From an uncultured Candidatus Saccharibacteria bacterium (GTDB lineage: Bacteria > Patescibacteriota > Saccharimonadia > Saccharimonadales > Saccharimonadaceae): a DNA stretch of 64,000 nucleotides. The notes below the pieces were generated by a model, which was not told the DNA's origin, did not search any database, and saw only the letters and a list, made by a program, of their open reading frames with translations. The stretch spans positions 7,537 through 71,536 of the forward strand of contig CAZVBM010000002.1 in NCBI GenBank assembly GCA_964625885.1, given 5' to 3'. Both the position numbers and the translations under genes were made by a program. Position 1 is the first letter of the stretch. Each line of letters begins with the position of its first letter. Below, one piece after another: positions 20,217 through 61,490 of this stretch.

Positions 20217-21705
20217 TAACTGTACCAGCTGGTTGACGAGGATCGGCTGTGTGAATATAAATCTTCGGGAAAAGTGGTAAGTGAGAAGCGTCGATCACGC
20301 CATTGCCAAATATTTGGCGAATCTTTTGGGCGGTTTCTGGCATAAACGGCTCTAGAAGTGACGACATTTGTAGCAGACCACTAGCAGCATAGTTCAGGAC
20401 ATCCTCGAGATGATGTTTGGATTCCGGATCGGTCTCAGCTTTCTTGGCAATCTCCCACGGCTTAACTGAATCAATATATTTATTCAGACTATGTACAAAA
20501 GACCAGGTTTCATCCATAGCGCGATCAAAACGCAAATCGCGTATCGCCTCAAAGTAGGAGTTCTCGTCATGATTAGTGGTATCCACTCCCGCCACCACAC
20601 CAGCTTGATATTTCTCAATCATTTTAGCGACGCGCTGCACCAAGTTGCCTAAATCATTACCCATCTCTGAGTTATAAGCCGTTTCAAATTTCTGCCAAGT
20701 AAAATCGCCATCATCTTGAGTTGGTATATGTCGCGAAAAATAATACCGAAAAGCATCGCGGCCATAGTTATCAATAAGCTCAACTGGGTCAACCACGTTA
20801 CCAACCGATTTGCTCATCTTGGCACCATCAACATTAATATGACCATGCACTAATAGGATTTTTGGTAAAGGCAGCTCCAATGCTAGTAAGATGGCTGGCC
20901 ACAAACCGGCATGAAAACGCAAGATATCTTTACCAATCACTTGCACATCAGCTGGCCAAACCTCATCCCAACCCAACTGATCTGGATAGCCAATACCCGT
21001 TATGTAGCTCGACAGAGCATCAAACCAAACATACATTACCTGATCTGGGTCGTTTGGAACGGAGATACCCCACCCCAAGCTTTTGCGTGGACGCGAGACT
21101 GAGACGTCAGCCAGACCATCTTTAATTAGGTTAAGAAACTCATTGCGACGCATCTCTGGCACAATCTGCATCTGGCCAGATTCAATAGCTGAACGAATTT
21201 GGTCACCGAAGGCACCAGCCTTGAAATAATAATTTTCTTCCTCAATATGCTCGAGAGCTTTTTGATGATCAGGACAGATACCCTCGCAAGCCGCCGCCTC
21301 AGCATCTGTAAAAAAGCGCTCACAACCGGTGCAGTACCAGCCATTGTAGCCAGATTTGTAGATATAGGGCTGGAGCTTTGTCCAGATATACTGCACGGCG
21401 CCAACATGATGGCCGTCTGTTGTCCGCACCGCATCGGTGTAACTAGCGCCGACTTTTTCAACCAAATTACGAAAGTTAAGATGATTTTCATCGACATAAG
21501 CTTGCGGTTCAAGGCCCAATTCTTGAGCTTTTTGGGCGATTTTGTTGCCATGCTCATCTGTACCGATCATAAAACGCACATCTTTGCCATGCCTCTTGTG
21601 ATGTCGTGCCCAAATATCAGCGTAAAGATAATCTAGCGCATTGCCAATGTGCGGCTTAGCGTTAACATACGGAATTGCCGTCGTGATATACAGAGAGTTC
21701 TTCAT
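20203..21705 (-). CDS. metG: Methionine-tRNA ligase
   Basis: HIGH-type motif (PHIGN), KMSKS motif and a CxxC zinc knuckle (CTGCERF...CPDH). Confidence 0.95.
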   Translation of the reverse strand: MKNSLYITTAIPYVNAKPHIGNALDYLYADIWARHHKRHGKDVRFMIGTDEHGNKIAQKAQELGLEPQAYVDENHLNFRNLVEKVGASYTDAVRTTDGHHVGAVQYIWTKLQPYIYKSGYNGWYCTGCERFFTDAEAAACEGICPDHQKALEHIEEENYYFKAGAFGDQIRSAIESGQMQIVPEMRRNEFLNLIKDGLADVSVSRPRKSLGWGISVPNDPDQVMYVWFDALSSYITGIGYPDQLGWDEVWPADVQVIGKDILRFHAGLWPAILLALELPLPKILLVHGHINVDGAKMSKSVGNVVDPVELIDNYGRDAFRYYFSRHIPTQDDGDFTWQKFETAYNSEMGNDLGNLVQRVAKMIEKYQAGVVAGVDTTNHDENSYFEAIRDLRFDRAMDETWSFVHSLNKYIDSVKPWEIAKKAETDPESKHHLEDVLNYAASGLLQMSSLLEPFMPETAQKIRQIFGNGVIDASHLPLFPKIYIHTADPRQPAGTVNATN

Positions 21706-23725: not shown

Positions 23726-25816
23726 CTATCTCTTGCTTAAATTAGCGTATTGGGTGTTGAGCTTACGAGTTTTACCATCGTTAAAACGCACTGACACTGC
23801 TAGACCATCAACGTCAATCACTTCGCCCCGACCAAACTGTGGCGATTCCACAAAATCTCCCACCTCAAAAGCGTTAATAAAGTCGATTTCTTCATAAAAC
23901 GGCTCTAATCCATAGCGCGATGATGATATGTCGGGGCGAATGCAGTCCAAAAATTGCGAAGGTAATAGATATTGACGCTGTCCAAACACAAACCGCGAGC
24001 CAGCGTAGGTTAAATAGAGCTCCTCTTTGGCGCGCGTCATTGCCACGTAACAAAGGCGCCTCTCCTCTTCTAATTCACCCGGTTCATCATAAACTCGCGA
24101 ATGCGGAAAAGTCCCCTCCTCCATGCCGACGATAATCACCACTGGAAATTCCAGCCCTTTTGAAGCATGCATTGTCATTAGACTAACTTGATTGTCGTCA
24201 GCCACCTGATCAGTACTTGACATCAGAGCTGCATCTTCTAGAAAAGACTCGATATCGCTATAAAGCGCGGCCTCGCTAACTAAAACACCTAAGTTAGCCA
24301 ACCGGTCCTCACCCTCAATCGAACCGTCGCTCAAATAATCTTTATACCCCGATAGAACTATGGCCTTATCGATAATTTCACCTGGCGCCAAACCAACCTT
24401 AAATAATTGATCAATTTGGCTGATTATCTTAGCAAACTTTTCCAACTTGGTTCGAGCTACCGTCTTTAGCGGACTTTCCTCGAGATGATACAGCGCCTCA
24501 ACCAAGTTATAATTAGTGCTTTGTTGCCAGTTAATAAAGTTTTCAACCGTCACACTACCGATGCCACGCGCCGGTGTATTAATCGCCCGCGCTAAGCTCG
24601 CCACATCAGACGGCTGATAAACCAGCTTTATATAAGCCAAAATATCCTTAATTTCTTTGCGATCAAAAAAGCGCACACCACCAATCACCTTGTGTGGGAT
24701 CTGGTAGCGCATGAAGGCCTGCTCAACCTGGTAAGATTGAGCATTAGCGCGGTAAAGCACCGCGATGTCTGCCAAGTTATGTCCATCCAACACCGCCGAT
24801 TTAACGATTTCCGCCACGCGATTAGCTTCATCAACCTCATCACGCGTTTCAATTATGTCAATTGGCTTGCCGTCACCCGCCTCAGTCCAGATTTTCTTAT
24901 CAGTTCGCTGCTGATTTTGCTCAATCAATCGCTGAGCCGCTTGCAAGATATTATTAGTCGAACGATAATTTTGCTCTAACTTAACTTCTTTTGCCTCGGG
25001 CCAATCGCGTTTAAAATTCAAGATATTAGTAAAATCTGCTCCGCGCCACGAGTAAATTGACTGCCAATCATCACCAACCACGCAGATATTTTGTTGATCG
25101 CTAACCAACATTTTAACGATTTGATACTGGGCGTGGTTAGTATCTTGGTATTCATCAACCAGGATATGCAAGAAACGCTCTTGCCATAAAGCCCGAGTTT
25201 TTGGTTTGGTACGCAACAGGCGCACCACTTCCAGCAACAAATCATCAAAATCCAAAGCATTAGCCGACCGGCGAAGCGATTCATAGCGCTCATAGACCGC
25301 GGCCAACATCTTTTGTTTCTGGCCACGCGCCTGATCAAGCGCCTCAGCCAGATCAACCATTTTATTTTTATTCGATGAGATCACCGCTACCGCTAATTGC
25401 GGTTTTAGCTCTCGGTCGGAAATATTCAGATCTTTTAATGCTCGTTTCACCAAACCTAGCCGATCTGATTCGTCGTAAATAACGAACTTCTCGTCAATTT
25501 GGATTTCGACGCCACTTTCTCGCAAGATTTTGACACAAATACCGTGAAATGTGCCCATAAAAGGCATAAAATACCAGCTGTCTTCGCGCCCCAACAGATG
25601 AGCAAGACGCGAACGCATCTCTTTAGCCGCCTTATTTGTAAAGGTCACCGCCAAAATCTCATCTGGCTTCACGCCACAATTAGCAATCAAGTGCGCGATT
25701 CGATGTGTCAAAGTTTTGGTTTTACCGCTGCCGGGGCCAGCCAAAATCAAAAGCGGACCATCGGTTATCTTGACCGCCTCGCTTTGAGCGGCATTTAAGC
25801 CCCTAAAAACATCCAT
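23726..25816 (-). CDS. pcrA: ATP-dependent DNA helicase PcrA/UvrD (SF1)
   Basis: Motifs AGPGSGKT, DEYQDTN, VGDDWQSIYSWRGA, NYRS, MTMHASKGLEF and YVAMTRAK. Confidence 0.95.
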   Translation of the reverse strand: MDVFRGLNAAQSEAVKITDGPLLILAGPGSGKTKTLTHRIAHLIANCGVKPDEILAVTFTNKAAKEMRSRLAHLLGREDSWYFMPFMGTFHGICVKILRESGVEIQIDEKFVIYDESDRLGLVKRALKDLNISDRELKPQLAVAVISSNKNKMVDLAEALDQARGQKQKMLAAVYERYESLRRSANALDFDDLLLEVVRLLRTKPKTRALWQERFLHILVDEYQDTNHAQYQIVKMLVSDQQNICVVGDDWQSIYSWRGADFTNILNFKRDWPEAKEVKLEQNYRSTNNILQAAQRLIEQNQQRTDKKIWTEAGDGKPIDIIETRDEVDEANRVAEIVKSAVLDGHNLADIAVLYRANAQSYQVEQAFMRYQIPHKVIGGVRFFDRKEIKDILAYIKLVYQPSDVASLARAINTPARGIGSVTVENFINWQQSTNYNLVEALYHLEESPLKTVARTKLEKFAKIISQIDQLFKVGLAPGEIIDKAIVLSGYKDYLSDGSIEGEDRLANLGVLVSEAALYSDIESFLEDAALMSSTDQVADDNQVSLMTMHASKGLEFPVVIIVGMEEGTFPHSRVYDEPGELEEERRLCYVAMTRAKEELYLTYAGSRFVFGQRQYLLPSQFLDCIRPDISSSRYGLEPFYEEIDFINAFEVGDFVESPQFGRGEVIDVDGLAVSVRFNDGKTRKLNTQYANLSKR

Positions 25817-31797: not shown

Positions 31798-32262
31798 ATG
31801 AACATCCACCAAGTTGAAAAATTCTTCAAAGATAAGAACGACGCGCCTTGCCCATTAACCAAGCGACTTATTAAGGCTGGTTATCAACAGACCAGTGGCG
31901 GATACATAGCCCTGGCAAAGAAGCGCGGTTTGATCGTAGATTACACAAAAGCCAAGCCTACACAATATTGGCACCTTATAGAGGGGTATTGCCCTTCCGT
32001 AGACAAGAATAAGACTTTTAGCAGAAGCATCGTTTGTGGCGAACTAATATTCTGGATGGCCGAGGTGTCGAAAGCCGTATCAAACGACGACTTAGAAGAA
32101 TTGCTTGAGCGAATAATTGCAAGTAGGGATACTGGCACCACTCCGCCAAAACATGATCGCATCAAATGGAATAAAGAGATTCAGAACCTTTGTTTTTGCG
32201 CAATAGAAGCGAAGGTAAAGAACACCGAGAATGTCGCTAACGCGACTTCCGTTCGCTCATGA
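31798..32262 (+). CDS. Hypothetical protein (154 aa from MNIHQ). Possibly leaderless.
   Basis: ORF 31711..32262 in the track. TATAAT at 31786-31791 lies 6 nt before the in-frame ATG at 31798 and there is no SD, so I prefer that start. No recognised family. Confidence 0.5.
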   Translation: MNIHQVEKFFKDKNDAPCPLTKRLIKAGYQQTSGGYIALAKKRGLIVDYTKAKPTQYWHLIEGYCPSVDKNKTFSRSIVCGELIFWMAEVSKAVSNDDLEELLERIIASRDTGTTPPKHDRIKWNKEIQNLCFCAIEAKVKNTENVANATSVRS

Positions 32263-32265
32263 AAA

Positions 32266-32410
32266 ATCCCACCGGGAAGGTTCGTTCGCTTTGCTTCCGA
32301 ACGCTCCGCCCGAACGCCAGATTAGTTTTGCTAACGCAAAACATCTGGGTTCGGTCCTGATGCGAAGCATCAAAAAAGAATACCCCAGCCGTTGGCTGAG
32401 GTATTCTTTT
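32266..32410 (-). repeat. tRNA-Glu-matched trailer unit: terminator-like hairpin, T-arm-derived palindrome and a 13-nt copy of the tRNA 3' part
   Basis: atcccaccgggaa at 32266-32278 repeats 32416-32428 inside the tRNA. ccgaacgccagat (32310-32322) and atctgggttcgg (32343-32354) form a hairpin made of tRNA-Glu T-arm sequence around gttttgctaacgcaaaac. Confidence 0.7.
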
Positions 32411-38880: not shown

Positions 38881-38957
38881 GCACCCGTAGCTCAGCGGAT
38901 TAGAGTACTTGGCTTCGAACCAAGGGGCCGCAGGTTCGAGTCCTGCCGGGTGCACCA
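38881..38957 (+). tRNA. tRNA-Arg (anticodon UCG), CCA encoded
   Basis: Hand-folded: acceptor GCACCCG/CGGGTGC, anticodon loop CTTCGAA, T-arm GCAGG-TTCGAGT-CCTGC. Confidence 0.9.
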
Positions 38958-39335
38958 TCCTCCGTCGCTATCCGTTGGATAGCTATGGAGGATTTTTTGT
39001 ACATCTAGGTAGGGCGAGAACCTGACTCGCCAGTTGGCGGGAGGTTCGGCGTAGCGCAGCGAAGCGAAAAAGTGTTTACATTTTTTCGCAAGCAAGCGAA
39101 GGAGCGAGCAAAGCGAGCGATGTCCTGCCGGGTGCACCATTAAAAAATAGCTACATTGTGGCCATTTTTTAATGGTCTATACCCAGACAGATTTGATTCT
39201 GCGGCGCGGCAGATTTAGCTGACGCAAGCCGCAGGTTCGGCGGAGGCGAAATGAGAAAAGAAAGCACTGTAGGTATTTTCTTTTCGAATGAGCCAGAGGA
39301 GGCAAAGCCGATGTCCTGCCACGCACCCATCACCC
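38958..39335 (+). repeat. Two tandem tRNA-Arg-matched units, each ending in a copy of the tRNA 3' part
   Basis: gtcctgccgggtgcacca (38940-38957) is repeated exactly at 39122-39139 and degenerately at 39313-39329. T-stem 5' copies lie at 39038-39049 (diverged) and 39228-39240 (12/13). Confidence 0.85.
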
Positions 39336-39385: not shown

Positions 39386-39974
<589 letters not shown>

Positions 39975-46019: not shown

Positions 46020-46339
46020 CAGAAACACCTCGTGTAAACGAGGTGTTAATTTTAGTGAGACATCGCTCACCGCGTTCGCTCCTCCGCTCCGAAAGGGTCG
46101 AAAGCAAGCTTTCGCGTTTCTTTCGTCGCTACGCCGAACTCACGACTTGTTTTGCTAGTGAGACATCGCTCATCCGCCAATTGGCGGATTCACTCCTCCG
46201 CTTGCTTGCGAAAAAATGTAAACACTTTTTCGCTTCACTGCGCTACGCCGAACTCATTTTTGCTACGCAAAAATCTGAGTTCTCGTCTCAGCCAAAATCA
46301 AAATCCTCCATAGCAATTCAAAAGGATTGCGACGGAGGA
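46020..46339 (-). repeat. Two tandem tRNA-Lys-matched units downstream of tRNA-Lys
   Basis: tagtgagacatcgctca occurs twice (46053-46069 and 46156-46172). cgaactcacgac at 46135-46146 equals 46359-46370 inside the tRNA. The 61-nt block at 46193-46253 is the reverse complement of 39044-39104 (59/61). Confidence 0.85.
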
Positions 46340-46416
46340 TGGTGGATCTGGTGAGACTCGAACTCACGACACCCTGCTTAAGAGGCAGGTGCTCTAACCG
46401 GCTGAGCTACAGATCC
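46340..46416 (-). tRNA. tRNA-Lys (anticodon CUU), CCA encoded
   Basis: Hand-folded from the reverse complement: GGATCTG acceptor, anticodon loop CTCTTAA, T-arm GTGAG-TTCGAGT-CTCAC. Confidence 0.9.
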
Positions 46417-46497
46417 GAACGTCATTATTTTACACTTTTTTACAGATTTTACAAGAGAATAAGAAAAATCCCTGCCTGTACGGCAGAGATTTTGTTA

Positions 46498-47154
46498 CTA
46501 GGTGGCGAACCAATCGTCAACAATTGGCCGGATGATTTGATAGATATCAGCCGCCACCTTTTCCTCGGACTGACTGGCGTCAACCAAATGACGACCATTT
46601 TGTTGACTAAGCTCGATATAACCCTGCCTGACTCGCTCGTGGAAATCAGCACCTTTTGACTCAAAGGTGTCAGCTTGGGCTGCAGCCAAGTCGCGCGACC
46701 GCATACGCTCCTGGATTGTTGGCACATCGACCATCAAGATTATTTCAGCGCCTGGCTTGGTGTAGTCTTTTGGCAACCACATTTTCGTCGAAGCAATGAT
46801 GTCATCAAGATCAACGCCTTCGCCATAGCCCTGATAAGCCAATGTCGACAAATAGCTCCGCGATGAAATAACCCAAATGCCCTCTTGCAATTTTGGGCCA
46901 TAAACCGTGTTCCACGCATCAGCCCTGGCGGCCAAGAACAACAAAGCGTTCGTCTTGGGATGACGATCGATCTCTTTGTTCTTTAAAATACCCTTTAAAG
47001 TATCCGCCATAACCGTTCCGCCTGGCTCCTCAATCTCAATGCATTTAATGCCATAACTACGTAACCGTGCCAGCAAGCGCTGCACTTGAGTTGATTTGCC
47101 AGAACCATCACCACCGTCTAATACAATGTACCTACCTCTTTTCACAAAATTCAC
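46498..47154 (-). CDS. tmk: Thymidylate kinase
   Basis: P-loop LDGGDGSGKSTQ and DRY-like region. 218 aa. Confidence 0.9.
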   Translation of the reverse strand: MNFVKRGRYIVLDGGDGSGKSTQVQRLLARLRSYGIKCIEIEEPGGTVMADTLKGILKNKEIDRHPKTNALLFLAARADAWNTVYGPKLQEGIWVISSRSYLSTLAYQGYGEGVDLDDIIASTKMWLPKDYTKPGAEIILMVDVPTIQERMRSRDLAAAQADTFESKGADFHERVRQGYIELSQQNGRHLVDASQSEEKVAADIYQIIRPIVDDWFAT

Positions 47155-47240
47155 CTCACCTTTTATTTGTTTTTAATAAGATATAGTTCTAATATACACC
47201 ATTGGCCTAAATCGGTCCAATATGGTAAAATAATGAAGCT

Positions 47241-47315
47241 TGCGGGTGTCGTATAATGGCTAATATATCTGCCTTCCAAGCAGAGGCTGCGAGTTCGATT
47301 CTCGCCACCCGCACC
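47241..47315 (+). tRNA. tRNA-Gly (anticodon UCC), CCA encoded
   Basis: Hand-folded: acceptor GCGGGTG/CACCCGC, anticodon loop CTTCCAA, T-arm GCGAG-TTCGATT-CTCGC. Confidence 0.9.
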
Positions 47316-47568
47316 AGACCGCATTTGAGGCTTTAGTCTCAAATAAGGTATGCTCGGCGTAGAAGAGAAGCGAACTCTTCGATAATTTCGCGGTCAGCGA
47401 AATTACATGTTGAGCCCAAGAAAACCAGCAACCTAAAAAATAGTTTTCATGGCGCGAGACTATATTCTCGCCACCCGCACCAAATCGTATTTGAGATTTT
47501 AATCTCAAATGCGAGTTGGCTCAGCATGGAAGAGAAGCGAACTCTTCGTTCTCGCCACCAACATCGTA
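47316..47568 (+). repeat. Two tandem tRNA-Gly-matched units between tRNA-Gly and tRNA-Arg(UCU)
   Basis: attctcgccacccgcacca (47297-47315) is repeated at 47463-47481. A degenerate third copy, ttctcgccacc, lies at 47548-47558. Both units start with an atttgag...ctcaaat hairpin and share gaagagaagcgaactcttcg. Confidence 0.85.
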
Positions 47569-47645
47569 TGCCTCGGTAGCTCAGCTGGATAGAGCAGGAG
47601 ACTTCTAAGCTCAAGGTCATAGGTTCGACTCCTATCCGAGGCGCC
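47569..47645 (+). tRNA. tRNA-Arg (anticodon UCU), CCA encoded
   Basis: Hand-folded: acceptor GCCTCGG/CCGAGGC, anticodon loop CTTCTAA (the anticodon stem has mismatches), T-arm ATAGG-TTCGACT-CCTAT. Terminator tcgcc-acacaa-ggcga with a T-run follows. Confidence 0.85.
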
Positions 47646-47676
47646 AAATTATTCGCCACACAAGGCGATTTTTTGT

Positions 47677-49203
47677 TTAATAAATCGTTTCAATATTTGC
47701 ACCAAGGGAGTTGAGGCGGCGAGCAAAGTCTTCATAACCCCGATTGATTGAGTAGACATTGCGCAAAATCGACTCGCCTTCGGCCGCCAACATCGCTAGC
47801 ATCAACACTACCGCTGGCCTTAGGGCTGGTGGCGTGACAATTTCTGCTGGCTTGAAGTTAGTTGGTCCAGTGATAATAATGCGGTGCGGATCAATTAGTT
47901 GAGTCGAGACATTTAATTTACTCAGCTCAGCCAAGTAAATCGCCCGGTTCTCGTACACCCAGTCATGAATCATCGTTGGCCCCTCCGCCACCGCCGCAAT
48001 CACCGCAAAAAAGGGCAGGTTATCGATGTTTAAGCCCGGATATGGCATCGGGTGAATTTTATCAACTGAGCAGGTCAACTTGCTCGGCTTTATTGTTATA
48101 TCAACCAGCTTAGTACGCTCATTGCGCGAGAAATAAACATCAGAAACTTTTAAGTTCGCCCCCATGCCCCGCAAAGTTTCGATTTCAACTTCGAGAAAAT
48201 CGATTGGCGCACGCTTAACGGTAATCTCCGAATTGGTTACCAGGCCAGCAGCGATGAAGCTCATAGCTTCAATCGGGTCTTCGCTAATTTCATAACTAAC
48301 GTTTTTATTAATATCGGCAAGACCCTGAACTCTTAGAAGCGTCGTACCGATCCCTTCAATGCGCACCCCTAATTTTTCTAGGAAGAAGCAGACGTCTTGC
48401 ACCATATAGTTCGGACTAGCGTTGTGAATTTCAGTCACGCCACTATGCAAGGCTGCCGCCATCAAGACGTTTTCTGTTACGGTATCACCTCGCTCCACCA
48501 AGACAATCTTGACTGGCTTTTTAGGGTCAACCGCTGAAACTTCAGCTTTATAAAACCCGCCAGCAGTATTGACGCTTAGGCCAAATGATTCTAAGGCCTT
48601 AAGATGCGGCTCAACCGTACGTGCCCCAAGATTACAGCCACCAGCGTACGGTAGCTTGAAGCGCTTATTTTTGTGAAGCAAGACCCCCATTAGCATAATC
48701 ACGCTACGGGTCATACGAGCCGACTCGAGGTTAATTTGGTTAGTATCAAAGCTAACTGGTGGAATTATTTCTAAATCACGATGATTGTTAAGCCAACGAA
48801 CTTTGACGCCCAAACTCTCAATCACTTCAATGATGCGATAAACTTCTTCAATGTTAGCGACGTGCCTGAGCACAGTCTTGCCACGGTTAAGTAACGAAGC
48901 GCAAAGTAGCGCTACAGCCGCGTTTTTTGAGGTATTAATGTTAATTGAGCCGCTTAGTTTCTTGCCACCATTGATACGAAAATGGATCACTCCCTTTTGG
49001 CCAAACGTCAACAGCCCCACTTTTAAAACCTCGCTGATCCTTTCGATCATCTCGAGACTAATGTTTTGTTTACCTTTCTCAATGCGGTTAATCGCACTCT
49101 GGGAAGTACCAACTTTGACCGCCAAATCAGCCTGTGTCATGTTTTTTTGCAAACGCGCGCGCTGAATCAAGTCCCCCACTAAACGTTTATAATTCTTTAC
49201 CAT
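47677..49203 (-). CDS. murA: XRE-type HTH domain fused to UDP-N-acetylglucosamine 1-carboxyvinyltransferase (MurA)
   Basis: The N-terminal 65 aa (LIQRARLQKNMTQADLAVKVGTSQSAINRIEKGKQNISLEMIERISEVL) form a classic HTH_3. The rest is a MurA/EPSP-fold protein (SKNAAVALLCASLL; GGCNLGARTVEPH with the catalytic Cys). Confidence 0.85.
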   Translation of the reverse strand: MVKNYKRLVGDLIQRARLQKNMTQADLAVKVGTSQSAINRIEKGKQNISLEMIERISEVLKVGLLTFGQKGVIHFRINGGKKLSGSININTSKNAAVALLCASLLNRGKTVLRHVANIEEVYRIIEVIESLGVKVRWLNNHRDLEIIPPVSFDTNQINLESARMTRSVIMLMGVLLHKNKRFKLPYAGGCNLGARTVEPHLKALESFGLSVNTAGGFYKAEVSAVDPKKPVKIVLVERGDTVTENVLMAAALHSGVTEIHNASPNYMVQDVCFFLEKLGVRIEGIGTTLLRVQGLADINKNVSYEISEDPIEAMSFIAAGLVTNSEITVKRAPIDFLEVEIETLRGMGANLKVSDVYFSRNERTKLVDITIKPSKLTCSVDKIHPMPYPGLNIDNLPFFAVIAAVAEGPTMIHDWVYENRAIYLAELSKLNVSTQLIDPHRIIITGPTNFKPAEIVTPPALRPAVVLMLAMLAAEGESILRNVYSINRGYEDFARRLNSLGANIETIY

Positions 49204-52107: not shown

Positions 52108-52192
52108 TATAATATGAGCACCTGAGAGAAAAGCGAAACTTGTTTTAGCTTTTCCGAAGGTGAGAAATATTACACGGAGTATAATCAACGTT
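52108..52192 (+). promoter_or_regulatory. Conserved promoter/hairpin module upstream of murT (copy 1 of 2)
   Basis: Order of elements: TATAAT (52108-13), a hairpin cacct...GAAAAGC..GCTTTTC...aggtg (52119-52162), then TATAAT (52180-85), then the ATG 7 nt later. About 85% identical to 55037-55121. Confidence 0.65.
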
Positions 52193-54835: not shown

Positions 54836-55030
54836 AATAAAATTAGTCACCTTCATGGTGGCTGATTTTATTTGACCACGGAATGGTGAGTTGAACTTGC
54901 GACGTTTTGCGCCAGCAAAACAAGTCGCAAGTCGTGAAGTGAGTGAAGCGAGTGAAAAGCAGGCCGAAGGCTTGTTTTTCCGAGCGAACGAGCGGAAGAG
55001 CGAGTAATACGAGCGATAATCTTGTCCCAA
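54836..55030 (+). repeat. tRNA-Pro(UGG)-matched trailer unit
   Basis: Elements in order: a terminator-like hairpin at 54836-54876; ttgaacttgcgac (54891-54903), the inverse of the tRNA T-arm 5' side; the inner hairpin gttttgcgccagcaaaac; a direct copy gtcgcaagt (54924-32); a central hairpin GAAAAGC..G.TTTTTC (54954-80); and a 3' copy aatcttgtc (55018-26). Confidence 0.8.
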
Positions 55031-55036
55031 ATATTG

Positions 55037-55121
55037 TATAATTAGAGCATCTGAGCGAAAAGCGAAACCTTGTTTCAGCTTTTCCGAAGATGTGAATAAT
55101 TACACGTAGTATAATCAAGCT
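55037..55121 (+). promoter_or_regulatory. Conserved promoter/hairpin module upstream of the deacetylase gene (copy 2 of 2)
   Basis: Order of elements: TATAAT (55037-42), a hairpin catct...GAAAAGC..GCTTTTC...agatg (55048-55092), then TATAAT (55110-15), then the GTG 6 nt later. Confidence 0.65.
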
Positions 55122-56665: not shown

Positions 56666-56747
56666 TCCTCCTTCGCTGTCTTCTGGACAGCTACGGAGGA
56701 TGCAGTCCGTAGCCTTTGGCGAAGGAGTGCATTTTATCAACACGCAT

Positions 56748-56824: not shown

Positions 56825-57282
56825 TAAAAATTGACTCACCTTTTGGTGGGTCAATTTTTATCTGTTGCGCGCAACATGTTTGACTGGCGACCTTTTGCGT
56901 AGCAAAAATTGGTCGCCTGTCGTGGAGTGAACGAAGCGAAGAAAAGCGCGTAGCATTTTTCTGAGCGAGTGAACGGAGGAGCGAAACGAAGTGGAGCGAT
57001 AATCAGGCCTGATACTATCGTAATATTGGTGGCTGATTTTATTTGGCCACGGAGTGGTGAGTTGAACAGGCGTGCCTGTTCGCGAATGAACTCAGCCTAC
57101 ATACGATCATGTGACCGGTTTAATAATTACTTTGAAGGGAATCTCGCAGTTACGACGGAGAGCTTAGCGCAGACGGCCCTGTAACGACAGGCGCCGTCAA
57201 GTGTCCCTGAAAAGTAATTATTAAATATCAGGTCGTATTAGAAATAGACAAGCAGGGTGGACGAAGCCCATAATCAGGCCCT
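56825..57282 (+). repeat. Three tandem tRNA-Pro(CGG)-matched units. The middle one carries the type-2 structured insert.
   Basis: Partial T-loop/T-stem 3' copies lie at 57001-57009 (aatcaggcc), 57225-57235 (atatcaggtcg) and 57270-57281 (ataatcaggccc). T-stem 5' copies are ggtcgcctgt (56911-20) and gcctgttcg (57074-82). Confidence 0.8.
57117..57235 (+). ncRNA. Candidate structured element (type-2 insert), copy 1. Strand and RNA status unproven.
   Basis: A 21-bp closing helix (ttaataattactttgaaggga / tccctgaaaagtaattattaa, with 2 mismatches) encloses a core that is about 85% identical to 61247-61310. Confidence 0.5.
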
Positions 57283-58756
57283 AAAACAACTTCTCACCGT
57301 AAATTTCATTTTCTAACTCATCATGATCATGACACCAAACCTGCGCAATAAACTGACTTTTCTTAGCTAATTTATCATTGTTCCACGGTGGCAAGAAACA
57401 TTCCGGACACCAATGCCCAGTTTTTAAGACTAAATACGGACTGGCCTCAAATTCGTGACCTTCGGAACAAACCCATTTCAATTTAGTTTGCAAATCGCCC
57501 TTTTTCATTTTATTAGACAAACAGTCGCCACCACGAAACTGAGCGGCTCGCTTCATATCAGCCAAATCTAACTGGTCTAACGGTTTTGTTTCATCATAAC
57601 CATGGTCTAATTTTGAATGCGCTTCATCGTGCACTAAACTAAAACCATCCCAGCCACCAGGAATCGCCTGCCATTTTTCAACCGAGCCAAAGAAAGCCTT
57701 AAATTTAGCCACTTCACCATGTTTTAGCCAATAGAGTGGCGCATTGGGCCGGTTGGCACGCGGTAACATAAAGAATCGCTTTACCAAACTAGCTGGGATA
57801 TATTTCAGTAATTTTAATTTGAGCGGTAGATCTCGTTTAATCTCTGCCAAAACATCATCAACCGTTTCGGTTCGAAAGTCTAAATAATTATTTAAATCAT
57901 CGGAATCCAAATACCACATGCCATGAAAATTACGCAGCGCATACCAATTTGGCTGTTCTAATGATTTAAGATCCACCCCTAACATACGATAAAACTTGTC
58001 TAAAAATTCAAAGGCCGTCAAGCGATTGGCCGCGCCACCACCAATATTATAGACTCGGCTCCAGAATCCACTAGGTAGCTCTTTGGTGCAGAGATTGTAT
58101 AGCAGCCGACCAGAATCACGCGCCGTAATCCACTCCAAGCTATTGTTGAGTGGCTGATGATAACTAATACCATCGTCCACCGCAAAAATATCTTTGTGTA
58201 TAATGCCCGTCTGACGGAGCGACACCCACTGCTTTATACCAGATTCAATCACATAACGTTCAGCTGCCACTTTGGAAATGGAATAATAGTCAAAAGCACT
58301 CGGTAGTAGTGGATCGCCGACTCGCCCCCAGTGGACTGGAATTGGCCGATTGCCATACTGACCAATACTACCAATGTAAACAAATTTAGTTGTTTCACCC
58401 TGCCCAAGTTCTATCACCGCATCGACTAAGTTTTTTGTGCCACCAAAATTAATTCGCCAGGCTAGTTTTGGACGCGTATCGGCCATCGGCGAGACCAACG
58501 CCGCAATATGCAAAACAATATCTATCCCAGATACAGCCTTTTTAACATCGTCATAATTGGTTAAATCACCCCAAACAATTTTAATATCTAGATTATCTTG
58601 ATAGGGCGCCAAGACCTTCTTGTCTGACTCACTTGGCAAAGAGAATATTACCAAATCAAATTGGTCAGTCTTTTCAGCCAATTGACGCAAAGCCTCACGC
58701 CCCATATTGCCAGTCGCGCCGGTTAAAAGAACCTTGGTTTTTTTAGCTTGACTCAT
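57281..58756 (-). CDS. NAD-dependent epimerase/dehydratase (extended SDR) with a C-terminal Cys-rich, zinc-ribbon-like domain
   Basis: Rossmann motif LLTGATGNMG and catalytic YSISK (YxxxK). C-terminal WVCSEGHEFE...GHWCPEC. Confidence 0.75.
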   Translation of the reverse strand: MSQAKKTKVLLTGATGNMGREALRQLAEKTDQFDLVIFSLPSESDKKVLAPYQDNLDIKIVWGDLTNYDDVKKAVSGIDIVLHIAALVSPMADTRPKLAWRINFGGTKNLVDAVIELGQGETTKFVYIGSIGQYGNRPIPVHWGRVGDPLLPSAFDYYSISKVAAERYVIESGIKQWVSLRQTGIIHKDIFAVDDGISYHQPLNNSLEWITARDSGRLLYNLCTKELPSGFWSRVYNIGGGAANRLTAFEFLDKFYRMLGVDLKSLEQPNWYALRNFHGMWYLDSDDLNNYLDFRTETVDDVLAEIKRDLPLKLKLLKYIPASLVKRFFMLPRANRPNAPLYWLKHGEVAKFKAFFGSVEKWQAIPGGWDGFSLVHDEAHSKLDHGYDETKPLDQLDLADMKRAAQFRGGDCLSNKMKKGDLQTKLKWVCSEGHEFEASPYLVLKTGHWCPECFLPPWNNDKLAKKSQFIAQVWCHDHDELENEIYGEKLF

Positions 58757-61045: not shown

Positions 61046-61220
61046 AAAACCCTTTCATCTGGGCGATCGTTTTCATCGCCTGTAAAAATATTCTTAAATC
61101 CGCGTCTTCGTCAAAAAATGGTCACTAAACGCTAATTAGATTGTAGCACAAAGCCATTTAGCGCGCGACTAATTATTAAAACCGACAACTAGTTTGCGTC
61201 ATTGTCCTTTATTCCGTACG

Positions 61221-61335
61221 GCCAGTTCAACAACTCACCAGCAGACAATCTCGCAGTTACGACGAGAGTTTAGCGCGAGCAGCCCTGTGACGACAGGCGC
61301 TGCCGACGCGTGTCTGATGGGGAGTTGTTGAACAT
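61221..61335 (+). ncRNA. Candidate structured element (type-2 insert), copy 2, embedded in an orphan tRNA-Pro-like T-arm. Strand unproven.
   Basis: ggccagttcaa | insert | catcaggcc. The closing helix gttcaacaactcaccagcagac / gtctgatggggagttgttgaac is unrelated in sequence to that of copy 1, while the core is conserved. Confidence 0.5.
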
Positions 61336-61490
61336 CAGGCCGTGGGTTAGCCTGGATTGGGGCTTTCAACCGACCAGCTCTCCAGAGACGTTTGACCACG
61401 CCCGTCGTTACGGGGTGGTCTGCACTTCGCTGTCGGTCGTAACCGCCAGAGCCTCTGTCGAGCTGGTTGGTTTACGCCCACTAGGTGACA

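Follow-up and report, generated by a model that had tools for sequence, protein, structure and literature searches.

Two units of ~185 nucleotides (nt) are located between tRNA-Arg(UCG) and tRNA-His (39404-39480) in a 64,000-nt stretch of DNA from an uncultured Candidatus Saccharibacteria bacterium (the window, taken at its full length). Each unit is composed of direct and inverted partial copies of the adjacent tRNA-Arg 3' end, in the order CCA-abutting hairpin, inverted copy, small hairpin, copy of tRNA nt 47-57, GA-rich insert and copy of nt 59-76. The genes adjoining such units in the window are bacterial housekeeping genes. tRNA genes were called by ARAGORN and Rfam, folds were computed by RNAfold, insert families were collected by nhmmer and the significance of inverted copies was determined by local alignment against shuffled sequence. 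The features of the locus are as follows.

38881-38957, +: tRNA-Arg(UCG) with encoded CCA (ARAGORN; Rfam tRNA, 70.5 bits); every matched segment derives from its nt 47-76 ('A')
38958-38998, +: T1, a TCCTCC...GGAGGA hairpin abutting the CCA (38958-38992) and followed by a T-run, terminator-like as read from the sequence
38997-39024, +: A'1, decayed inverted copy of tRNA nt 76 to 50 (TTGTACATCTAGGTAGGGCGAGAACCTG); 19/28 identities, p = 0.006 against shuffles
39026-39041, +: hp1, small hairpin CTCGCC AGTT GGCGGG (sequence reading, RNAfold)
39040-39049, +: direct copy in unit 1, T-stem 5' side followed by TTCG (GGAGGTTCGG; sequence reading)
39050-39121, +: insert A, GA-type, 72 nt, CGTAGCG...GAGCGAT, with a central hairpin at 39064-39089
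39122-39139, +: unit 1 copy of tRNA nt 59-76 including CCA, GTCCTGCCGGGTGCACCA, 18/18 exact
39140-39172, +: T2, hairpin abutting the copied CCA, with T-run; terminator-like match at 39150-39162
39181-39205, +: A'2, decayed inverted copy of tRNA nt 70 to 46, whose terminal GATTCTGCGGC is complementary to the T-stem 5' side; 19/26 identities, p = 0.002 against shuffles
39206-39227, +: hp2, a loop with a small hairpin that separates A'2 from the direct copy (RNAfold, sequence reading)
39228-39240, +: unit 2 direct copy of nt 47-58, GCCGCAGGTTCG (39228-39239, 12/12 exact) then G
39241-39312, +: insert B, GA-type, with a different hairpin at 39253-39286 (nhmmer E = 1.9e-10)
39313-39329, +: unit 2 decayed copy of nt 59-75, GTCCTGCC then ACGCACCCA, first 8 nt exact

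Architecture of the units

The original prediction for this locus was correct in all its coordinates and matches (the 18-nt exact, the 12-nt exact and the degenerate copy), and the observation is real and non-random. No matching tRNA 5' half is present, as had been stated: a hairpin and an inverted 3'-end copy lie upstream of the copied pieces instead, and ARAGORN finds no gene. The accompanying statement that nothing complements the 3' strand is refuted by the inverted copies at 38997-39024 and 39181-39205. When this inverted copy and the second hairpin, both previously missed, are taken into account, the presumed 'attR-like scar' becomes a module of the form (58-76)-hairpin-inverted copy-hairpin-(47-57)-insert. 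Judged by its sequence, T1 appears to be the tail-to-tail turn-around of this module, and hp1 the head-to-head turn-around that joins the inverted and direct copies.

The minimum free energy structure pairs A'1 with the 59-76 copy at 39122-39139 over 15 bp, of which 4 are G.U, while the short GGAGGTTCGG segment pairs with GAACCT of A'1 over 6 bp, which alone is not significant. In unit 2, the duplex between A'2 and 39228-39240 scores z = -3.1 (p = 0.004). For unit 1, RNAfold predicts a three-way junction that is closed where the upstream strand pairs with the 59-76 copy; it was dropped as a general feature because this pairing is not general across units.

Copies of T1 that are ~87% identical follow tRNA-Lys and tRNA-Pro-GGG, so that a near-identical TCCTCC...GGAGGA hairpin abuts the CCA of Arg-UCG, Lys and Pro-GGG (38958-38992, 46300-46339 and 56666-56701, respectively); the Pro-GGG copy has no T-run and sits in a tRNA-tRNA spacer. 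T1 is also kept in the closest genome (L002, described below).

Recurrence at other tRNA genes of the window

A locally matched T-arm split by an insert had been predicted at five further tRNAs, and this holds for tRNA-Glu, Lys, Gly and both Pro loci. The full plan recurs at each of them, giving six loci in the window including Arg, with a module length of about 182-190 nt.

32262-32410, -: tRNA-Glu, with inverted copy 32343-32372, hp hairpin, short insert and 13-nt copy 32266-32278
46050-46339, -: tRNA-Lys units, with T hairpin, inverted copy 46276-46300, TTTTGCGTAGCAAAA hairpin and two insert-bearing copies
47317-47569, +: tRNA-Gly to tRNA-Arg(UCU) spacer, with inverted copy 47351-47377, 19-nt exact copy 47464-47482 and 11-nt copy 47549-47559
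54836-55030, +: tRNA-Pro(UGG), one more instance of the plan
56825-57290, +: tRNA-Pro(CGG), two units, the second with a ~190-nt F-type insert (GA-type in L002)

In place of hp1, the other loci have an hp hairpin TTTTGCG-N-AGCAAAA 67-71 nt past the tRNA; it is common to the Glu, Lys and both Pro loci, where the distance is 68-70 nt. The inverted copy, which is complementary to both direct pieces, is significant in all eight units tested (p<=0.006). Pairing of the inverted arm with the nt 47-57 copy beats shuffled sequence in six of seven units; pairing with the nt 59-76 copy is significant in one of seven (Lys unit 1, with Arg unit 1 marginal). Decay is seen in the distal copy at Arg and Gly, whereas the copy nearest the tRNA is exact there. 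Units follow the orientation of their tRNA on both strands, while the GC skew of the whole window has one sign, which argues for site-directed rather than replication-strand-directed insertion. Matches to the tRNA-Pro 3' end at 23823-23939 fall inside a coding region and were set aside as chance.

Distribution among Saccharibacteria

Related loci were gathered by genome and metagenome scans, yielding a set of 161 sources (2.5 Mb, 341 tRNAs). An inverted copy of the last 31 nt was found downstream of 47/330 tRNAs, compared to 2 upstream, and is present in 33/106 sources; it ends 60-72 nt past the tRNA gene, with a mode of 67-68. The architecture marks about one in seven of the tRNA genes sampled. 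An artefact of multiple displacement amplification or of assembly was rejected because 33 independent sources show the same structures, as do separately taken samples of a single species.

Direct copies are equally tied to their own tRNA. Among 182 tRNAs from related loci, 22 near-exact copies of nt 58-69 lie downstream of the cognate tRNA and one lies upstream, compared to 0-2 when tRNAs and loci are mismatched, which exceeds chance. An exact 3' copy of at least 14 nt accompanies 25/341 tRNAs, and the starts of these copies cluster at -18, -19 and -21 from the 3' end, corresponding to T-loop nt 59, 58 and 56.

Simpler forms also exist. 'Empty' modules with an unbroken T-arm copy were found in L022 (two in tandem), L070 and L040, and a minimal form consisting of tRNA, hairpin and inverted copy, with no direct copy, in L101. 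In L062, both partners of the pairing between the arm and the 47-57 copy have changed from the tRNA sequence, and the pairing is kept (ATCGGC with GCCGAT). Genomes at only ~62% MurA identity share the hp hairpin and the insert families, at different tRNAs.

Insert families

The inserts, 31-190 nt in length, split the copied block in the T-loop and are always located in direct copies, never in inverted ones. They fall into three families (GA-, K- and F-type), both Arg inserts being GA-type. Small open reading frames in the inserts were considered and rejected: Arg unit 1 contains ATG TCC TGC CGG GTG CAC CAT TAA, and the Pro loci have no start codon.

The GA-type gave 23 nhmmer hits, including Gly, His, Arg and Lys tRNAs of distant genomes, and some distant copies carry an identical AAAAAGTGTTTACATTTTT hairpin. 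A first MAFFT alignment of these inserts misaligned the hairpins and was unusable for RNAalifold; a second alignment worked. The consensus is an irregular hairpin with compensatory changes, with one G.U kept at the same place in distant genomes.

A covariance model of the K-type (~120 nt) recovered 12 full copies in 8 sources. In these, 97% of cells are paired and 19/30 pairs show compensatory changes, a level reached by 0/500 shuffles. On the tRNA-sense strand there are 26 G.U vs 1 A.C pairs, with one G.U conserved in 11/12 copies, the count being made up mostly of one conserved insert position and of T-stem pairs inherited from the tRNA. In the inverted-repeat arms, a program-made count gave 6 G.U vs 4 A.C, too mixed with neighbouring tRNAs to be informative. 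The K-type module reads GGTGAGA...CGCAAGG...GGGGTCGCG...GTGACC and occurs in L015, L026, L096, L099, L103, L117, L122 and L129 (e.g. L122 10998-11117), hosted by T-loop copies of tRNA-His and tRNA-Arg(UCU). Two L103 copies are not co-oriented downstream of a tRNA. Taking GA- and K-type matches together, 28/35 are co-oriented with a tRNA and lie <=500 nt downstream of it.

F-type sequences (~120-190 nt) are found at 57115-57235 (a T-loop insert) and 61247-61300 of the window, and at L002 21013-21132. The copy at 61247-61300 sits in a gene-free 445-nt stretch (61046-61490) with RNase Y and TsaB-like genes on either side; this stretch holds long AT-rich stems and has no Rfam match.

Insert exchange at orthologous positions

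By its MurA-HTH (helix-turn-helix) protein the window belongs to the Saccharibacteria, family Nanosyncoccaceae. The closest genome, L002, is syntenic with the window and shows 92% protein identity by the same protein. It is the sole intermediate relative, since the metagenome scan gave no closer relatives above 69% MurA identity. Window and L002 carry units in the same slots with different contents. The insert of Arg unit 1 is found at tRNA-Lys in the window (96.7% identity, 46193-46253) and at two tRNA-Pro loci in L002 (87-89%), while the insert of Arg unit 2 is found at tRNA-Lys in L002 (90%). The unit 2 slot of tRNA-Pro(CGG) is occupied by a 190-nt F-type insert in the window and by a 67-nt GA-type insert in L002, between near-identical flanks. 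Furthermore, the insert type found at tRNA-His and at tRNA-Arg-UCU, K or GA, depends on the genome. The T-stem of tRNA-Arg itself differs between window and L002; the window copies fit their own tRNA, and the L002 copy is partly decayed. The frames of the units can be strikingly constant: after tRNA-Pro(CGG), 107 of the first 110 nt are identical to L002, while several other intergenic regions are unalignable.

Upstream of tRNA-His, L002 contains tandem ~112-nt repeats (20698-21000), each opening with the first 13-17 nt of tRNA-His; these 5'-fragment repeats are possibly a mirror image of the 3' units. Same-species short-read contigs (L083-L091; window 46367-47715) end inside tRNA-Lys, tRNA-Gly or tRNA-Arg(UCU), and the tRNA cluster hence appears hard to assemble.

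Searches for enzymes and known families

Rfam 15, at gathering and E-value thresholds, returned only tRNAs in the window and four related loci, and neither ARAGORN nor Rfam makes a call inside the units. No HUH protein is encoded in the window. A blastn comparison of the region with phages and plasmids gave no match; scanning viral contigs for the unit-frame pattern gave one chance match in a coding region, the conserved GA hairpin had no viral match, and the K-type motif had one chance match in a GC-rich phage contig. The 18-nt complement of the 3' end had suggested a primer-binding site of retroviral type; this was rejected, as most units have no CCA part and no reverse transcriptase is present. 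On size, position of the complementary arm and missing partner proteins, the units were likewise judged not to be guides of the bridge-RNA or omega-RNA kind, IS200/IS605 ends or group I/II introns. Full-text literature searches gave no description of split, mirror-image tRNA-end modules; the arrangement is therefore filed as a variant of tRNA-targeted integration, outside any named family.

A proposed model of T-loop integration

We favour the reading, at a probability of roughly 40%, that the units are integrated miniature (~110-190 nt), gene-less and non-autonomous cassettes specific for the T-loop of the cognate tRNA. The breakpoints at nt 56-59, the constant order of parts, the fixed-position inverted copy, the 'empty' modules, the gradient from proximal to distal copies, the insert swaps, the fit of the window's copies to their own tRNA, the unit orientation and the lack of any recombinase, transposase or reverse transcriptase domain among the 54 open reading frames of the window favour integration at the T-loop. 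The original suggestion of serial integration by miniature, integrase-less elements thus finds support, its attR-like anatomy giving way to the module described above.

The module would be phased as (58/59-76)-T-inverted(76->47)-hp-(47-57)-optional insert, placing both module ends inside the T-loop. As a single strand it could fold such that the inverted copy pairs with both direct pieces, forming a duplex of tRNA-gene positions 47-76 that mimics an attachment site; T and hp would close the two ends, and the insert would bulge out at the open 57/58 junction. The whole module would then be inserted if a single strand were exchanged with the T-loop of the chromosome directly 5' of nt 58/59. The tRNA would stay intact and be followed by T, the inverted copy, hp, 47-57 and the insert, with the old 3' end and its hairpin displaced downstream. 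Repeated events would produce tandem units with the newest beside the tRNA, and the exact proximal and decayed distal copies at Arg and Gly are as expected because new insertions would enter at the tRNA. The recombinase is proposed to be supplied in trans, a logic shared with CTX-phage attP(+) and integron attC. Anatomy, statistics, spread and insert replacement are observed, whereas the fold, the strand exchange, the trans-acting enzyme and present-day mobility of the cassettes are parts of the model.

Several observations weigh against it. No recombinase was identified in the 64 kb covered, and the searches returned no free or circular form and no phage or plasmid copy. To our knowledge, circles of 110-190 nt would be smaller than known recombination substrates. 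Ten same-species contigs (99.7-100% identity) show neither presence/absence polymorphism nor indels in the units. The part of the inverted copy that faces nt 59-76 is decayed, and its pairing is not significant in most units. The joint within the T-loop differs by family, falling after nt 54 for the K-type and after nt 57 for the GA-type, and the insert ends show no duplicated crossover core. The spacer that holds the Gly units has to be transcribed. Finally, unit frames are 95-98% identical to L002 over 50-110 nt, compared to 69-86% for coding DNA; such conservation, higher than that of coding sequence, points to a role in the cell more than to selfish scars.

A broader version of this proposal, put forward tentatively and perhaps better doubted than believed, is that Saccharibacteria harbour unrecognised tRNA-specific mini-cassettes: single-strand 'dumbbells' of ~110-190 nt that integrate seamlessly and carry exchangeable structured payloads. 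These GA-, K- and F-type payloads may themselves be new non-coding RNAs from tRNA trailers.

Alternative explanations

The conservation of the frames would fit a second reading, in which the units are functional RNAs, or RNA processing or insulation modules, in tRNA trailers and spacers, with structured inserts held in a T-stem-like scaffold. The inverted copy could then pair alternatively with the tRNA 3' half or with the decoy copy, leading to long duplexes that serve, for example, as nuclease sites or as a switch. K-type covariation and the G.U bias on the tRNA-sense strand are in line with such a role, as are the G.U kept in GA-type hairpins of distant genomes and the co-orientation of 28/35 inserts downstream of tRNAs. 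At the Gly locus, the units lie between tRNAs 253 nt apart with neither a promoter nor a T-run terminator between them. The co-transcribed RNA module named among the original hypotheses accordingly gains from the transcribed Gly spacer and the K-type covariation; it loses from the lack of any sigma-70-like promoter inside the units and from the strong terminator-like hairpin and T-run behind which most first units lie. Folding z-scores are moreover equal on sense and antisense strands, no Rfam family is matched, and the K-type G.U count leans on one position and on tRNA-inherited T-stem pairs. An RNA role also leaves the local-tRNA flanks, the starts at nt 56-59 and the unrelated inserts in orthologous slots unexplained. 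We consider it possible but rather unlikely. It is compatible with T-loop cassettes, as the payloads could be expressed by read-through.

The direct-inverted-direct layout, with palindromes at both turn-arounds, is also what template switching would leave. Here the units would be immobile fold-back by-products of replication, formed without dedicated machinery at a palindromic terminator beside highly transcribed tRNA genes, with the inserts as later junk. The minimal form in L101 fits, as do inverted copies that lie at a constant distance beyond the terminator as mirror images of the tRNA end; in addition, the GA-rich tracts resemble reverse complements of the T-loop, an example being the Gly 'insert' TGCTCGGCGTAGAAGAGAAGCGAACTC, which can be aligned with the tRNA-Gly 3' end in reverse complement. 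By-products would not be expected to share an hp hairpin and insert families across genomes at ~62% MurA identity and across tRNAs, nor to avoid inserts in inverted copies while direct copies are nearly always split exactly in the T-loop. Exchange of inserts between loci and conservation above the coding level point in the same direction, making this origin unlikely.

Decayed local duplications, also among the original hypotheses, are contradicted because the blocks are 95-98% identical to L002 where coding DNA is 69-86%, and because the families are conserved across distant Saccharibacteria. Decayed attR/attL scars of conventional integrase-encoding prophages or islands, since almost wholly deleted, would draw on a well-documented footprint, namely partial tRNA 3' copies as att scars, with arrays left by successive integrations (PMC9897764; bioRxiv 10.1101/2020.12.28.424599). 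L122 (3006-7700) and L147 (9163-13700) do contain islands of ~4 kb with a tRNA at one boundary and 14-19 nt copied from its 3' end at the other; they hold hypothetical genes and no Pfam-recognisable integrase. Set against this, att blocks are contiguous and ~40 nt long, whereas the block is here split in the T-loop; a fixed-position inverted copy, a conserved hp hairpin and a recurrent length of ~180 nt would be unexpected; and no integrase fragments were found in the window or in either island, with sequence that is conserved rather than decaying. We regard this origin as improbable.

Lastly, tRNA genes or halves with T-loop introns (split or permuted tRNA genes) can be dismissed almost entirely: archaeal non-canonical tRNA introns are known at T-loop positions, where the inserts also lie, but D-arm and anticodon arm are missing in front of every unit, each unit has a complete cognate tRNA beside it, the organism is bacterial, and ARAGORN and Rfam call nothing in the units.

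Other observations in the window

Two 74-nt leaders (88% identical, with a GAAAAGC...GCTTTTC hairpin) lie at 55045-55118 and 52116-52188, directly upstream of a polysaccharide deacetylase and MurT; they may represent a shared regulatory element of two cell-wall genes. MurA (47677-49203) has an N-terminal Cro/C1-type HTH domain, a fusion common to Intrasporangiaceae and Dermatophilaceae actinobacteria at 61-63% identity, which might reflect gene exchange between Saccharibacteria and actinobacteria.

Comparison with known systems

Whatever their origin, partial tRNA copies of this kind could mislead the annotation of tRNAs and islands. If the RNA reading is true, tRNA trailers would be linked to at least two new, widely conserved structured RNA families (K- and GA-type), and this in a phylum with little-studied RNA biology. 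If the T-loop cassettes are real, the T-loops of a reduced-genome episymbiont would be landing pads for the smallest known site-specific integrating units, with the inverted tRNA-end copy as a built-in folding partner, and may open genetic tools for the hard-to-manipulate Saccharibacteria.

The att repeats of tRNA integrases (prophages, integrative and conjugative elements, tycheposon arrays) share with the units the direct 3'-end copies past an intact gene (18, 19 and 13 nt exact), the T-loop breakpoints, the tandem arrays, and the exact proximal and decayed distal copies at Arg and Gly. The units differ in being gene-less and 110-190 nt long, with a split block, a fixed-distance inverted copy and interspecies conservation.

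DUP-TRP/INV-DUP rearrangements (duplication-triplication/inversion-duplication), quasi-palindrome extension and rolling-hairpin concatemers resemble the units in their alternating head-to-head and tail-to-tail joins via two palindromes. In the units, however, different genera share the turn-around hairpin and the inserts, the geometry is fixed at many tRNAs and inserts are confined to direct copies. Archaeal and red-algal T-loop introns and split or permuted tRNAs equally have a T-arm interrupted in the T-loop by a structured insert, whereas the units have no 5' half, an intact cognate gene next door, a bacterial host and no evident bulge-helix-bulge context.

REP/BIME/REPIN sequences and MITEs are, like the units, small, gene-less, hairpin-forming intergenic repeats located after genes and, as proposed for the units, mobilised in trans. 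The flanks of the units instead copy the neighbouring tRNA locus by locus, at tRNA 3' ends only, and neither a RAYT or transposase nor visible terminal inverted repeats or target-site duplications were found. REP/REPIN sequences and IS200/IS605-derived PATE are dispersed genome-wide, have a RAYT or TnpA partner and insert 3' of a fixed tetranucleotide, in contrast to inserts that mostly lie <=500 nt downstream of a tRNA (28/35) and whose junctions vary by family.

The CTX-phage attP(+) site used by XerCD and the integron attC site used by IntI come close in the proposed chemistry. There an inverted repeat lets one strand fold into a duplex recombination site whose centre is unpaired or bulged and whose terminal structure varies, and the inverted copy of the units could perhaps do the same; the units are likewise short and gene-poor, stand in tandem arrays and have seemingly exchangeable contents. 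They differ in that no Xer or IntI is encoded in the window, a T-arm takes the place of dif, attI or attC as the site, tRNA genes rather than attI head the arrays, and the size is far below that of a typical cassette; the folded-strand chemistry is inferred only. The palindrome ends read ...CGAAC / GTTCG..., with C and not a purine as the fourth R' base (T-loop GTTCRAN), and depart from the attC R''/R' core RYYYAAC...GTTRRRY. If they are indeed cassettes, the units would constitute an integron-like cassette platform at tRNA T-loops, operating with no linked integrase.

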